Origin: an uncultured Candidatus Sumerlaeota bacterium
GTDB lineage: Bacteria; Sumerlaeota; Sumerlaeia; SLMS01; JAHLLQ01
Assembly: GCA_964580585.1 (NCBI GenBank)
Contig: CAZOKZ010000013.1
Span: 52 to 64,051, forward strand
Length of the DNA: 64,000 nt
Reading direction: 5' to 3'
The number at the start of each line of letters is the position of its first letter. Positions within the stretch are counted from its first letter, which is position 1. The position numbers were made by a program, and so were the translations under genes. Below, piece after piece: positions 3,112 to 63,081 of the stretch. Below the pieces are notes generated by a model, which saw only the letters and a program-made list of their open reading frames with translations, was not told the origin of the DNA and ran no database searches.

Positions 3112-3184
3112 CCGCGAAGCCACCAAGGCGCGAAGGAAGGCGAAGACAAAGTTCTTTGCGAATCTTTGCGTCTTTGCGGTGAAG
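3112..3184. repeat. structured octamer-arm repeat family, degenerate copy
   Basis: CGCGAAGGAAGGCGAAGACAAAG ... TTCTTTGCGAATCTTTGCGTCTTTGCGGTGAAG. Shares the CTTTGYGAATCTTTGCG linker with the copy at 4441. Confidence 0.5.
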
Positions 3185-3265: not shown

Positions 3266-4264
3266 ATGTCCCTTTACTTGCTCGAGAAACCCGCCATGTC
3301 GCCCATTACGGTTCATGAAGCTACTTCCCGCTACGACGACGGCGTGCGCGCGCTCTTTCGCGCTGCGCATGTGCCGATTGATGGCGCGTTTTGGGCGCGG
3401 GCGTTTTCGCCCGATAACCCCGGCGGCACGGCCAGCCAACCGCTCGTTGCCGTGGACGAAGAAACCGGCGCGGTCGAAGGTTTTTTGTGCGCGCGACCGA
3501 TCAAACTTCATTTCGAGGGCGAGTTTGTCGATGCGCAGGTGCTGCACGATTTTGTTCTGCGTTCGGGTCCTGCCGATTTGGGGTCGGCGGGACATGCGAT
3601 GATTCGCGAAGCGCTCACTCGGGCGGAAATGACAATCGTTGCGGGGGCGGGGACGGCACTGACACCTGTGCTCGAGGCCGAAGGGTTTTTGCTCGCCGGT
3701 TTTTTTTCGCGCATGCGATTCGATCCCGTCGATGGCGATTCTGCGCGACCCGACATGACGTTGCCGTTTGTATTTTCACGCGCCGACGATTTTCCTCCAG
3801 CGCTCGAAAAACTCAACCAGGCGCATCTGACTGAAAAACGCATCTTTCGGATGCGCGATTTTTCTCAACGCACCTGGCTCTTTGCGGGACCTGCGCCGGA
3901 GTTTGAAATCCTGATCGCCGCGGAAGACAGTCCGATCGATGCTTACGTGGTGTTGCGCACCGTGACGGGGCGGTTTGGTCCGGAACTCCATGTCGTCGAT
4001 TTTGCGTGTCCGATTCATGCCGCCAAACGCCTGTCGCTCGCGTTGCGAGAACTAGCTCACGAACGCCAGCAAACGCTCTACGTCAGTTTTTTCGGCCGTG
4101 CCTGGAACGATGTCTTTATGAGCGCAGGTTTTCAACTCTTGCGCGCGCGATGGGCGCTGCAATTTCAGATGCGCGATCCCCGGCAACGCGCCATTTCCGG
4201 TGCGCTGATGCGTTCCGAGTCCTGGTTCTTCACGCCCGCAGACGGGGAAATCGATCACTGGTAA
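3266..4264 (+). CDS. hypothetical protein (possible acyl-CoA N-acyltransferase-like fold)
   Basis: 332-aa ORF, ATG at 3266 with GAGG 8 nt upstream; high-GC codon usage. Followed by a rho-independent terminator at 4369-4403. No motif I can name confidently. Confidence 0.5.
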   Translation: MSLYLLEKPAMSPITVHEATSRYDDGVRALFRAAHVPIDGAFWARAFSPDNPGGTASQPLVAVDEETGAVEGFLCARPIKLHFEGEFVDAQVLHDFVLRSGPADLGSAGHAMIREALTRAEMTIVAGAGTALTPVLEAEGFLLAGFFSRMRFDPVDGDSARPDMTLPFVFSRADDFPPALEKLNQAHLTEKRIFRMRDFSQRTWLFAGPAPEFEILIAAEDSPIDAYVVLRTVTGRFGPELHVVDFACPIHAAKRLSLALRELAHERQQTLYVSFFGRAWNDVFMSAGFQLLRARWALQFQMRDPRQRAISGALMRSESWFFTPADGEIDHW

Positions 4265-4275
4265 AAGGAAGAGCA

Positions 4276-4487
4276 AACCACAGAGGCACGGAGACACAGA
4301 GGAATCACGGAGGGAAAATATTTAACGCAGAGACGCAAAGACGCGGAGAATATTTTTAAACAATAAGCGGGACGGAGTCATTGTTTGCTCCGTCCCTTTT
4401 TTTAAACTCTGCGTCGCTGCGCCTCTGCGCGAGAAAAAAACTTTGTGAATCTTTGCGGTCCCTCTGTGTCTCCGTGCCTCTGTGGTT
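4276..4487. repeat. structured octamer-arm repeat family (CACAGAGG flavour) with nested inner arms (CGCAGAG flavour)
   Basis: Outer arms AACCACAGAGGCACGGAGACACAGAGG... / CCCTCTGTGTCTCCGTGCCTCTGTGGTT. Inner arms CGCAGAGACGCAAAGACGCGGAG / CTCTGCGTCGCTGCGCCTCTGCGCG. A terminator sits in the centre. Confidence 0.7.
4369..4403 (+). terminator. rho-independent terminator nested inside repeat element
   Basis: GGGACGGAG-TCATTGTTTG-CTCCGTCCC hairpin followed by T7. Confidence 0.75.
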
Positions 4488-15978: not shown

Positions 15979-16256
15979 GGGGCGTATCTTGAGTTTGTTA
16001 CCAAAACGATAAAAAAAGCAAACCACGAAGGCACGAAGACACAAAGAAAACACGAAGGGGCTGTTTGCCTGCTTGCAATTTTCTCGCTCTTCGATGGCGA
16101 GCGAGCGAAAAAATCCGTCAAAAAATGGCGATTTCAATTTTTGAAAAGGCCTTGATGGAAAATCAATGAATACAATTTTTTCTTCGTGTTCCTTTGTGAC
16201 CTTCGTGCCTTCGTGGTGAATCTTTTAATAATTGGCAACAAAGTTGAGATGCGCCC
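15979..16256. repeat. MITE-like member of the repeat family (long copy, CACGAAGG flavour)
   Basis: Homologous to 14874-14998 at both ends (GGGGCGTATCTTGAGTTTGTTACCAAAACGA... / ...GTGGTGAATCTTTTAATAATTGGCAACAAAGTTGAGATGCGCCC). Arms AACCACGAAGGCACGAAGACACAAAG / CTTTGTGACCTTCGTGCCTTCGTGGTG. ~120-nt loop with an internal hairpin. Confidence 0.7.
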
Positions 16257-16329
16257 AGGAAGAGAGATAAATAATAGGTAATCTTGACCGAGTTTATCCC
16301 TCAGCTTTTTCATCCCTCATCCTTTGAAT

Positions 16330-30922: not shown

Positions 30923-31109
30923 TACCACGAAGGGCAGGAAGGCGCGAAAAACACAAAGGAACAAGAAGAAAAGAATTTAGCCACAGAGGACACAGAGTTC
31001 AAAGAGAGGTTCTGCGAATTTTGCAACACAGTTCGTAATCGAGTTTTGGGAAATTGAAAACGGCGAACTTTAGAAATCCCTTCTCGGTGATCTCTGTGTC
31101 CTCTGTGGC
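30923..31109. repeat. structured octamer-arm repeat family (CACGAAG arm fragment plus perfect 18-bp CACAGAGG-type IR)
   Basis: GCCACAGAGGACACAGAG (30980-30997) and CTCTGTGTCCTCTGTGGC (31092-31109) are exact reverse complements. Upstream is TACCACGAAGGGCAGGAAGGCGCGAAAAACACAAAGG. Confidence 0.7.
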
Positions 31110-31119
31110 AAAAAAGTTC

Positions 31120-42309: not shown

Positions 42310-42410
42310 ACGAAAAACTCCATCCACTAAAAACCATCAACTATTGACTATAAACTATTAACCAACAACCCCACTAAAAACTGTCCACTGTAAACTGTGA
42401 ACTGATATCT
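42310..42410. repeat. AT-rich tract with direct repeats (CCACTAAAAAC x2, AACTATT x2, ACTGT x3)
   Basis: Seen directly in the sequence, 3' of yidD. GC content is far below that of the surrounding sequence. Confidence 0.6.
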
Positions 42411-48385: not shown

Positions 48386-49558
48386 TTACCAAACGCGGAA
48401 CACGAAAAACTTCAAATAGTCCGTTTCCGGCGCGGCGGGCAGCACCGGGTGGTCGGTGTCGGCTCCGGCGGCGTTGAGAAGTTGCACGCGGCGTTTGGCG
48501 TCGGCTGCCGCACCGAGGGCAGTGGCATACAAGTCCTCGCGCCCGACATGGTACGAGCACGAACACGTTGCCAGGTATCCGCCAGGACGCACCAACTTCA
48601 TCCCGCGCAGGTTGATTTCCTTGTACCCGCGCAGAGCATTCTTCAAGCTGCCGCGGCTTTTCGCGAAGGCGGGCGGATCGAGCACCACAACATCGAACTG
48701 GCGACCCGCGTCGCTCCACTCGCGCAGCAAATCGAAGCAATTACCGCATTCGAACGCGCACCGGTCGGCGAGCCCGTTGCGCACGGCGTTCGCGCGGCAT
48801 TGCGCCACGGCTTCCTCCGAATAATCCACACCGAGCACCGATTTCGCGCCGCCAGCGCCTGCGTTCAGCGCGAACGAACCGATGTACGTAAAACAATCGA
48901 GCACTTCGGCACCTGGCGCCAGCCGCCGAATGAACGCGCGATTGGCGCGCTGGTCGAAAAAGTACCCAGTCTTCTGGCTTGCAGCCAAGTCGATGCCGAA
49001 CTCCAGACCGTTTTCGCGAATAACGATCCTTGTATCGAACGATTCGCCGATGCAGCCTTCGACGAGAGTCAGGCCTTCTTTTTCGCGCGTCGTGGCGAGG
49101 CTTTTTTCGTAAATTCCGCGCGGTGCGAGCAACTCGCGCAGCAGGCCACAGATCATGTCTCGGCGTTTGTCCATGCCGAGTGTCAGAAACTGCACCGAGA
49201 GCACATCGCCGAACCGGTCAACGATCAACCCGGGCAACCAATCGCTTTCGGAATACACCAAACGGCAATTCGTCGGGTCGTCAAGCAAGCGCGCGCGCAA
49301 GGAAATCGCCGCTTCAAGCCGCCGCCGGAAAAACGCCTCGTCGATCGGTTCGTCCTCAAACGTCAGAAGGCGCACGCGAATTGCCGAATGCGCGTTGTAG
49401 TACCCGCGCCCAACGAACTTGTTTTTCGTGTCGCGAACATCGACAATTCCGCCGTTCGTTGGCGAGCCGTCGATCGTGCCGACTTCGGAATCGAACACCC
49501 ATGGATGACCGTCGAGACAGCGATGGGTGACTTTGGGTTTCAGGTGAATCGTCGGCAT
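48386..49558 (-). CDS. rlmI: class I SAM-dependent rRNA methyltransferase (RlmI/RlmK-like, PUA + MTase)
   Basis: N-terminal PUA-like region, then a Rossmann SAM-binding region (VLDCFTYIGSFAL, DPPAF). Confidence 0.8.
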   Translation of the reverse strand: MPTIHLKPKVTHRCLDGHPWVFDSEVGTIDGSPTNGGIVDVRDTKNKFVGRGYYNAHSAIRVRLLTFEDEPIDEAFFRRRLEAAISLRARLLDDPTNCRLVYSESDWLPGLIVDRFGDVLSVQFLTLGMDKRRDMICGLLRELLAPRGIYEKSLATTREKEGLTLVEGCIGESFDTRIVIRENGLEFGIDLAASQKTGYFFDQRANRAFIRRLAPGAEVLDCFTYIGSFALNAGAGGAKSVLGVDYSEEAVAQCRANAVRNGLADRCAFECGNCFDLLREWSDAGRQFDVVVLDPPAFAKSRGSLKNALRGYKEINLRGMKLVRPGGYLATCSCSYHVGREDLYATALGAAADAKRRVQLLNAAGADTDHPVLPAAPETDYLKFFVFRVW

Positions 49559-49590
49559 GGGGACGGAGACCTCGGGGGTTTTTAGTTAAC

Positions 49591-50030
49591 TCGCGCAGAG
49601 GCGCAGAGACGCAGAGAGTTTAATCTTCCAATCCATTGACGGCACGCTTAATGCCGTCCTTCATCAAGGCTTCTCCGAAATTGAGAAGGTAGCCCAGTTT
49701 GCACCCGGTCAAGCGGAGATACGTTTGTAGTTGTTTAGAGTGTGCAGGTATCATTTTTTTAACGGATTTAAGTTCCAGGATCACTTAATTTTCGATCATA
49801 ATATCGGCCCGAAATCCTTCGTCGAAAGTAATGCCACGATATTGAATCGGAATAGGAAGTTGACGTTCTACCTTCAAACCATGGCCGCTCAAGGCACGTG
49901 CGAGGACAACCTCATAGACGGTTTCTAACAATCCCGGTCCCAATTCGCGATGAATTAAAATCGCTTCGGAAATAACAATACTTTCAATCTCATTTTCACT
50001 CATTCTCTGCGCCTCTGCGTCTCTGCGCGA
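49591..50030. repeat. structured octamer-arm repeat (CGCAGAGG flavour) whose arms exactly flank the GxxExxY gene
   Basis: Left arm TCGCGCAGAGGCGCAGAGACGCAGAGAGT ends at 49619, and the gene's stop is at 49620. Right arm TCTCTGCGCCTCTGCGTCTCTGCGCGA starts at 50004, and the gene's ATG is at 50003. 25 of 27 positions pair. Confidence 0.75.
49620..50003 (-). pseudogene. GxxExxY family protein (small PD-(D/E)xK-like) interrupted by in-frame TAA at 49785-49787
   Basis: The N-terminal 72 aa contain GPGLLETVY. Continuing in frame after the TAA gives VILELKSVKKMIPAHSKQLQTYLRLTGCKLGYLLNFGEALMKDGIKRAVNGLED, the canonical C-terminus. The full product would be 126 aa. The gene sits exactly between inverted-repeat arms. 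Confidence 0.65.
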
Positions 50031-50082
50031 AATAAATTAGCTCAACTGCAAACCTCGGGATTTTTTCTCTGCGCGAGATCGT

Positions 50083-50118
50083 TAATAAAAAGCGGAAGGC
50101 ACCGCAATGCCTTCCGCT
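50083..50118 (-). terminator. rho-independent terminator downstream of eno
   Basis: AGCGGAAGG...CCTTCCGCT hairpin followed on the minus strand by TTTTTATT. Confidence 0.6.
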
Positions 50119-50147
50119 TGGTTTGCTAACGTTATTTCGTCGTGCGA

Positions 50148-62266: not shown

Positions 62267-62443
62267 AAGTTAGAAAAGGATGAAGACGGAAGGATGATGG
62301 ATGACTCGTCCGCCGAAGCCTTTGGCGAAGATGGAAGTGGGGTTGACGCGTGTTCGACGTCTGCGGTTGGGTTTGCGCGTTCGTTGATAAACTTCTTTTG
62401 AATTATCCCGTTGGATTTTAAATAGCGAGAGAGAGACTGACCT

Positions 62444-62902: not shown

Positions 62903-63081
62903 GGGAAGAAAGGCGAAATTCGAAAGGATGAAGGATGAAATGGCCGGAGAGTATTGGCTGGTTGATCGTGATCGTGATAAAAAAATGGTCGCTTTTCCGG
63001 TGTGCAGATTCTTTCGCCTTCATCCTTTCTCCTTTCGCTTTAAATTCATCCCTCCGCCTTCATCCCTCATCCTTCTTCGCC
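62903..63081. repeat. structured octamer-arm repeat family (GGATGAAG flavour)
   Basis: GGGAAGAAAGGCGAAATTCGAAAGGATGAAGGATGAAATGG ... TCTTTCGCCTTCATCCTTTCTCCTTTCGC ... TTCATCCCTCCGCCTTCATCCCTCATCCTTCTTCGCC. Contains the GCAGATTCTTTCGCC linker. Confidence 0.6.

Follow-up and report, generated by a model that had tools for sequence, protein, structure and literature searches.

A candidate insertion-sequence-like cassette: a GxxExxY nuclease gene enclosed by inverted tandem-octamer arms

Why should a small nuclease gene fill the loop of a long hairpin, with almost no nucleotide to spare at either end? This question is raised by a stretch of 64,000 nucleotides from an uncultured Candidatus Sumerlaeota bacterium (contig CAZOKZ010000013.1; hereafter, the window), where a GxxExxY gene interrupted by an in-frame TAA lies between two complementary arms made of tandem octamers (Table 1). 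An initial annotation of this DNA had proposed that the repeat family is derived from, or mobilised by, an element that encodes the GxxExxY protein. The answer that we consider probable on balance is a partnership between a repeat and an enzyme, of the kind known from REPIN/RAYT systems or from insertion sequences and miniature inverted-repeat transposable elements (MITEs), but with a new class of enzyme, the window copy being a freshly inactivated member.

The inverted repeat of the window has arms of 32 nt that are 88% complementary and contain perfect 16-mers (core arms, 49591-49617 and 50004-50030). According to Tandem Repeats Finder (TRF), each arm consists of three tandem CGCAGAGR octamers, and the two-octamer pattern has nine matches in the window vs. 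0.22 expected. The enclosed frame comprises 127 sense codons plus a stop (384 nt in total) and has a GC content of 0.43-0.44, vs. 0.57-0.64 in the flanks; the left arm is located 3' of the gene, on the gene's strand. The initial annotation was right about a gene that fills the loop between inverted arms. At one end, the ATG (50001-50003) touches the right arm; at the other, the stop (49620-49622) is 2 nt away from the paired part of the left arm.

As for the protein, membership in the GxxExxY group of PD-(D/E)xK-like nucleases, also proposed beforehand, was confirmed by profile searches with the two halves of the interrupted frame. Both halves match the two family profiles collinearly (for PF13366, profile positions 2-69 and 71-116; E = 9e-18 and 1e-14), and each half passes the cut-offs on its own. 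Once repaired, the protein matches PF13366 with E = 1.7e-39 (135 bits; cut-off, 22) and TIGR04256 with E = 4e-39 (133.5 bits; cut-off, 35). In a structure predicted with the homolog P0001, which is 76% identical to the window protein, the alpha-beta-beta-beta-alpha-beta core and the D...(D/E)xK catalytic residues of PD-(D/E)xK enzymes are present; the protein is, as predicted, a minimal Cas4/RecB-type nuclease core without the iron-sulfur module. Solved structures gave no match in a sequence search, defence-system models gave weak Cas4 matches only (E ~0.003), and no transposase class was recognised: PF13366 and TIGR04256 were the only family matches, and the fold is Cas4-like. In public data there are at least thousands of GxxExxY/PF13366 proteins (nearly all of the at least 8,000 scored candidates matched), and they are annotated by motif name only. 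PF13366 is listed with function unknown and "multiple transfers" (PMC3424549).

The arms are not a peculiarity of the window. A scan with one genome per species yielded 80 GxxExxY loci which, together with the window, make up a sample of 81 loci from more than 12 phyla, including Verrucomicrobiota, Desulfobacterota (Geobacter among them), Planctomycetota, Acidobacteriota, Bipolaricaulota, Sumerlaeota, Nitrospinota, Gammaproteobacteria and others. With the octamer generalised to CRCNNNGR, the gene is preceded within 60 nt by a purine-type array, and followed within 60 nt by the complement of that array, at 40 of the 81 loci; at six further loci the open reading frame (ORF) is located between two complete hairpins. 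An inverted-repeat score of at least 13 was reached at 38 of 77 loci, by none of 385 control sites of the same spacing in the same loci, and by no shuffle. The gap between arm and ATG is 0-25 nt, and that between the last sense codon and the arm 1-21 nt (the 3-nt stop included). Distant members (38-46% identity) and cultured organisms have the same arm-ORF-arm layout, with a 9-nt period in the arms of Bacteroides finegoldii. Since GxxExxY genes elsewhere carry octamer arms, the observation made in the window generalises, and the outcome named in advance as fatal to it, paralogues that are never armed, is not what was found. As in REPIN/RAYT systems, the gene is flanked by inverted copies of a dispersed repeat family.

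Arms and gene also arrive together. The initial annotation had called for a comparison with empty sites, and at homologous cassettes in other genomes the whole arm-ORF-arm unit proved to be either present or absent. Two cassettes in a Scalindua metagenome-assembled genome (MAG) are 88% identical over exactly arm-ORF-arm (471-479 nt), with no shared sequence beyond it. In Sphingomonas parapaucimobilis, the cassette separates fabD from fabG, while in S. paeninsulae only 36 nt, without arms, lie between these two genes, and other Alphaproteobacteria have the same short span. In four Verrucomicrobia (L018, L027, L063 and L066) the cassette is found between a DUF1295 gene and cfa, whereas four relatives (L210-L213; cfa 83-87% identical) have an ATGA overlap of the two genes and lack a hairpin. 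In L018, the cassette is flanked on either side by TTTCCAAAATCATGAT(CTC), a sequence that spans the DUF1295/cfa overlap. This flanking repeat is, judged from the sequence, a target-site duplication of 16-19 nt. Since the overlap sequence is duplicated, both host genes keep complete ends, and the three orthologs of L018 have kept diverged copies of the duplication. Hence, terminal inverted repeats and unit insertion vs. an empty site, as expected of an insertion sequence, are found both at fabD/fabG and at DUF1295/cfa; an example of an empty target site is TTTCCAAAATCATGATCTC. Taken together, these comparisons show arm-ORF-arm to be a discrete unit that has been inserted, duplicated and inherited, and that can land at hairpin-free sites; at least once, its insertion apparently generated a target duplication of 16-19 nt.

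Some particulars of these loci may be added. The S. parapaucimobilis cassette (L205; NZ_CP155749.1, 482837-483265) is located inside the conserved fabD-fabG-acpP-fabF operon, and its ORF runs through the downstream arm and stops just before the start of fabG. In the four Verrucomicrobia (about 3385-3435), the frame lacks the usual stop and ends at 3414-3435, into or past the downstream arm. Two Geobacter MAGs (L017 and L022) seemed to differ by an inversion of the cassette, but this reading was rejected: the match between their flanks is another repeated element, of ~750 nt, in the same orientation.

The two arms of a cassette change together. The flavours observed are CGCAGAG, CGCCAAG, CGCAAAG, CACAAAG and CACGGAG, plus CGCRACG in Geobacter. 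Among 24 aligned arm pairs, from loci that had been selected for pairing, 94% of the cells are paired (slid controls, 26-56%), compensatory changes are found in 14 of 23 pairs, and there are 68 double-change cells vs. 22 +/- 4 in shuffles; the covariation of flavours is independent of that selection. The median match score of an arm is 21.5 with its own partner vs. 9.75 with foreign arms, and protein identity correlates with arm-word similarity in pairs from different phyla (Spearman 0.555; permutation p ~0.001). Furthermore, the polarity of the gene is fixed relative to a recurrent asymmetry of the outer ends of the arms (TCG...GGA), by 11 to 0. These comparisons show that the arms co-vary and track the nuclease subclade across phyla.

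The same controls bear on the simplest explanation of the locus, namely, that the arms are flanking terminators or chance repeats, or that the whole resembles an intervening sequence of ribosomal RNA (rRNA), an analogy drawn in the initial annotation. An intrinsic terminator does lie just upstream of the gene, and the other hairpins of the window are intergenic, one of them enclosing a terminator. But the arms pair across 386 nt and have no T-runs, and the architecture recurs at 40 loci and at no control site; rRNA signature motifs were found in none of ~200 loci, and a scan of the window with Rfam gave no match at the gathering score. The terminator, chance and rRNA readings are excluded by the controls, the covariation and the rRNA motif search, and we give this family of explanations hardly any credence.

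What, then, is the relationship between the cassette and hairpins that have no gene? A metagenome scan for three CGCAGAGR octamers retrieved 120 loci with 83 hairpins, in all of which the purine-type arm comes first. The loop is shorter than 150 nt in 57 of the 83; eight hairpins have loops of 350-550 nt, and four of these contain GxxExxY. GxxExxY, be it intact, frameshifted or truncated, was the only recognisable loop cargo in the hairpin-selected sample. Within a locus, the arms of the cassette are similar to the arrays that have no ORF. Hairpins of matching flavour without an ORF are shown to be common, and the cassette is related to a large population of them. The pairing of autonomous and non-autonomous forms suggested in the initial annotation agrees with ORF-less hairpins beside cassettes, one of which has a truncated GxxExxY remnant.

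A side observation concerns a Verrucomicrobiota MAG (L043, 3470-4240), which has at least five tandem units of ~134 nt beside its GxxExxY gene; each unit contains a conserved spacer and a single CGCAGAG hairpin without an ORF, the loop of which (TTTCTGGTTCC) is also conserved.

The abundance of empty loops could also be explained in the opposite direction: a homing-type nuclease gene would invade the loops of independent, pre-existing hairpins similar to repetitive extragenic palindromic (REP) sequences, the empty loops being cut by the nuclease and the ORF, with next to no untranslated sequence, being copied in via arm homology. Along with the fact that most hairpins are ORF-less, this would account for an ORF that abuts both arms with 0-25 nt to spare, and for the frequency of decayed copies, as in the life cycle of homing endonucleases. 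In addition, genes that live as parasites of structured elements, such as the ORFs of group I introns, typically reside in loops. Against it, both empty sites are hairpin-free and, therefore, the arms arrived with the ORF. Besides, arm flavour goes with the clade of the protein, also between host phyla, the polarity of the gene is fixed, orthologous loci show long-term purifying selection, and arms of 27-32 nt are short for homology-directed copying. Homing into independent hairpins is, in our opinion, quite unlikely.

The cassette gene evolves under purifying selection. Across 15 orthologous or paralogous pairs, which include species pairs with a synonymous divergence (dS) above 1, the ratio of nonsynonymous to synonymous divergence (dN/dS) is 0.03-0.21; therefore, the protein was functional long after insertion. 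Neighbouring genes are co-directional upstream at 58 of 67 loci and downstream at 42 of 55, which shows the cassettes, at the loci compared, to be placed as a rule co-directionally downstream of host genes. Since there is no sigma-70-like promoter ahead of the window gene and the neighbours are co-directional, read-through transcription is suggested. In the predicted RNA of the window (minimum free energy, -150 kcal/mol; z = -4.8), a stem of ~30 bp closes the ORF and takes in a GAGG located 8 nt before the ATG. As a general explanation, an arm that acts as a Shine-Dalgarno sequence was rejected: its spacing is good in the window but not in other flavours or loci. In plasmids, the gene was found in eight of 72,556 records, mostly megaplasmids, and it was absent from the 50,697 phage records.

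These data suit a second alternative, according to which the gene encodes a domesticated or addictive nuclease (in repair or defence, for instance) that never mobilised itself, or no longer does so, and the arms are a device at the RNA level: the stem would close the ORF, hide the ribosome-binding site and offer a site for RNase III, so that a promoterless gene could ride host operons with little polar effect, while its spread would be due to rare illegitimate insertion plus horizontal transfer. The low dN/dS between species with dS above 1, the persistence of cassettes at orthologous positions in four species, their co-orientation with upstream host genes, the predicted terminal stem that includes the GAGG, and the rarity in plasmids and absence from phage records all speak for it. 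Nonetheless, arm mismatches are of the G-U type in 14 cases and of the A-C type in 19, i.e., without a sense-strand G-U bias, and hence nothing ties the complementarity to RNA of the gene's strand in particular; selection on the arms as strand-specific RNA was rejected for this reason. An RNA device leaves unexplained both the abundant matching ORF-less hairpins and the tandem-octamer build, a target duplication of 16-19 nt suggests that insertion was an active process, and the match to defence systems amounts to a weak Cas4 similarity only. All in all, we regard this second alternative as rather unlikely, though less so than homing.

Coming back to the partnership of repeat and enzyme, it would take the form of a compact, insertion-sequence-like cassette: two inverted tandem-octamer arms around one 127-codon nuclease gene. 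Regarding the enzymology of insertion, we infer that the substrate of the nuclease is either a target site or the structure, hairpin or cruciform, into which its own arms fold, and that its action favours the insertion or copying both of the cassette and, in trans, of ORF-less hairpins. In read-through transcripts, the ~30-bp stem would close the ORF and sequester the ribosome-binding site. A more specific proposal, possible but to be taken as tentative, is that of a hitherto unrecognised, minimal class of mobile element, of ~450 bp, in which the nuclease, alone or with host repair factors, would insert the unit by staggered cuts ~16-19 bp apart and would also propagate ORF-less hairpins, as a nuclease-driven counterpart of REPIN/RAYT. 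With the same reserve, the hosts of the intergenic ORF-less hairpins so propagated might include Verrucomicrobiota, Planctomycetota, Desulfobacterota, Sumerlaeota and other phyla. The idea of a mobile element, as first put forward for this locus, is largely supported by unit insertion elsewhere and by the matching ORF-less hairpins; that the nuclease itself performs the mobilisation is what we infer.

Several facts weigh against a mobile partnership: (i) flanking direct repeats are significant in only five of 35 cassettes and, since those of three (L028, L030 and L042) include arm sequence, these three are duplications of a tandem unit and not of a target, so that target-site duplication as a general rule was rejected; (ii) the window's own 15-nt direct repeat is imperfect and offset; (iii) despite several hairpin flavours, the 64-kb window has a single GxxExxY copy, no further one being found by tblastn; (iv) within 50 kb around the Sphingomonas cassette there is no other octamer array or ORF-less hairpin; (v) with dS values that exceed 1, many cassettes are old and have been passed on vertically; (vi) the loci were chosen as the best full-length matches, which biases the sample against decayed copies; and (vii) current mobility is supported by no experiment or population-level polymorphism. 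Finally, a PD-(D/E)xK nuclease is not known to perform strand transfer alone and, therefore, the autonomy of the cassette is doubtful.

And the interrupted frame of the window? For the in-frame TAA, the initial annotation had left three options: a recent pseudogene, a sequencing error or read-through. A contig of 1175 nt (L002), assembled from a separate sequencing run (SRR13617030) and 100% identical to the window, has the same TAA, and this independent assembly disposes of the sequencing error. The codon follows residue N72 and divides the frame into ORFs of 72 and 54 codons, so that the window copy has no uninterrupted frame for the whole PF13366 domain. The family consensus at this position is Lys (alignment of 53 members) and, hence, one substitution suffices to turn AAA into TAA; the two halves together keep all 38 invariant columns of the alignment, D67 and E77-L-K79 included. 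Since the enolase gene ends in TAA, this codon is an ordinary stop in this genome and, since it splits the D...ExK active site, the window copy is most likely a real and recent pseudogene, inactivated by one AAA-to-TAA change. Programmed read-through was rejected in favour of this conclusion. We recommend annotating the gene as a pseudogene, located in an insertion that is bounded by repeats and separates eno from the rlmI-like gene.

Single nonsense codons in otherwise intact GxxExxY genes were found at five of the 81 loci (residues 19, 31, 48, 48 and 73), which suggests recurrent knock-out of an otherwise conserved nuclease; in the hairpin-selected sample, three of six GxxExxY copies are frameshifted or truncated. 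Apart from the window, the single-nonsense genes are those of L021 (residue 19), L028 (residue 31), and L037 and L062 (residue 48); in the latter two, which are unrelated loci, the change is CAG to TAG at the invariant Gln48. At another locus (L191, 700-1000), the loop contains only the N-terminal 72 residues of GxxExxY, which end in '...DLIVEN', i.e., at the point where the window protein stops ('...DIMIEN*'). With just two cases, this shared end point may be a coincidence, or the N-terminal fragment may be tolerated or useful.

Among known systems, a close parallel is that of REPIN and RAYT, which consist of REP doublets and a REP-associated tyrosine transposase (PMC3116915; PMC3337134). As in those systems, there are short hairpin-forming intergenic repeats and a single small gene flanked by inverted repeats, repeat flavour co-varies with gene lineage, and there is long vertical persistence under purifying selection. 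The differences are that (i) the enzyme is a 127-aa Cas4-like PD-(D/E)xK nuclease instead of an HUH/Y1 (IS200/IS605-like) transposase; (ii) the arms are made of tandem 8-nt (sometimes 9-nt) units instead of REP palindromes; (iii) the gene is located in the loop of one long hairpin; (iv) a target duplication of 16-19 nt has been seen; and (v) the cassette is horizontally spread over more than 12 phyla, with several copies per genome possible. With insertion sequences and MITEs, the cassette shares terminal inverted repeats with one ORF occupying all of the intervening sequence, unit insertion, target-site duplication in at least one case, and ORF-less and truncated derivatives; but it has no DDE, serine, tyrosine or HUH transposase, it measures ~450 nt, its duplication is unusually long, and its ORF is conserved over deep divergence. 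To our knowledge, no autonomous insertion sequence is as small as ~450 nt.

Casposons, which are self-synthesising transposons based on Cas1, have terminal inverted repeats, target duplications of 14-15 bp and, often, a Cas4-like nuclease; by contrast, the cassette contains neither Cas1 nor a polymerase, and its single gene occupies ~0.45 kb vs. several kb. Intervening sequences of 23S rRNA may carry small ORFs (S23p/four-helix-bundle family); the cassette is similar in having a small ORF within one long stem, co-directional in the host transcript, but it is found outside rRNA and has another protein fold and tandem-octamer arms. Integron attC cores (RYYYAAC/GTTRRRY) were not evident in the arms by eye, no integrase search having been made. 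Stand-alone PD-(D/E)xK genes of COG4636/DUF820 (Uma2) have been proposed as selfish elements (PMC551604); these belong to a family other than GxxExxY, and nothing is said of hairpin arms in the abstract of that work.

While the name and the fold of the GxxExxY family are already known, no description of the hairpin-bounded architecture, the octamer repeats or the evidence for insertion was found in open-access papers and preprints. Tandem-octamer hairpins yield many spurious "hypothetical proteins" in genomes of the Verrucomicrobia and Planctomycetes type. If the cassette were indeed self-propagating, a widespread class of intergenic hairpins built of tandem octamers would be accounted for, and the short list of bacterial partnerships between repeats and enzymes would gain a nuclease-based case. 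The cassette would then also provide a very small, defined cassette for experiments, with Sphingomonas parapaucimobilis, Bacteroides finegoldii, Cerasicoccus maritimus and Lamprocystis purpurea as cultured hosts.

In the window, the neighbours of the cassette, all of them on the minus strand, are the enolase gene, with its terminator, and a gene for an RlmI-like rRNA methyltransferase (48386-49558). The closest non-self relative of the latter among 5.8 billion proteins is 61% identical and non-syntenic, and is encoded on a 4.9-kb contig labelled Sumerlaeia (L083); the DNA thus probably comes from a Sumerlaeota-like lineage that is poorly sampled. The 15-nt direct repeat around the cassette has 13/15 identity and a flank-restricted score of 10, vs. 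a 99th percentile of 9.0 in shuffles; its left copy overlaps the leader and the ribosome-binding region of the downstream methyltransferase gene. Since 16 nt lie between the repeat and the arm end on the enolase side, the repeat is a candidate target duplication only.

Table 1. Features of the window discussed in the text (positions in the 64,000-nt stretch).
Feature	Position	Strand	Remarks
Left hairpin arm	49586-49617	.	Three tandem CGCAGAGR octamers, outer end TTAACTCGCG; pairs with 50004-50035 in the RNA fold
Right hairpin arm	50004-50035	.	Adjoins the ATG directly and, read on the gene's strand, supplies a GAGG 8 nt before it
GxxExxY (PF13366/TIGR04256) gene, Cas4-like PD-(D/E)xK nuclease	49620-50003	-	127 codons, in-frame TAA
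In-frame TAA	49785-49787	-	In place of consensus Lys73, between catalytic D67 and E77-x-K79
15-nt direct repeat, left copy	49569-49583	.	ACCTCGGGGGTTTTT; candidate target-site duplication
15-nt direct repeat, right copy	50052-50066	.	ACCTCGGGATTTTTT
Solo arm stub	50066-50079	.	CTCTGCGCGAG; pairing with the left arm's outer end also possible
Enolase intrinsic terminator	50090-50119	-	Context only; the cassette lies between this terminator and the methyltransferase start
ORF-less hairpins	3113-3178, 4276-4487, 16022-16217, 30976-31113		All intergenic

Among the ORF-less hairpins of the window, the first, third and fourth are of other flavours (GCGAAGG/CTTTGCG, CACGAAGG and CACAGAGG), with loops of ~30-125 nt in which no GxxExxY remnant was detected by tblastn. 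The second one is a nested hairpin between convergent genes: its outer arms (27 nt, 100% complementary) are made of CACAGAGG/CACGGAGA octamers and its inner arms of CGCAGAGA/CGCAAAGA octamers, and a canonical intrinsic terminator (GGGACGGAG...CTCCGTCCC, followed by a T-run) occupies the centre. A different, purine-rich family (GGATGAAGG/CCTTCATCC and the 14-mer TTCATCCCTCAGCC) forms inverted and tandem intergenic repeats at 62275-62295, 62910-63075 and 16290-16320. Finally, TRF detected AT-rich tandem heptamers at 42326-42404, with about five copies of ACTATAA followed by about four of AAACTGT.

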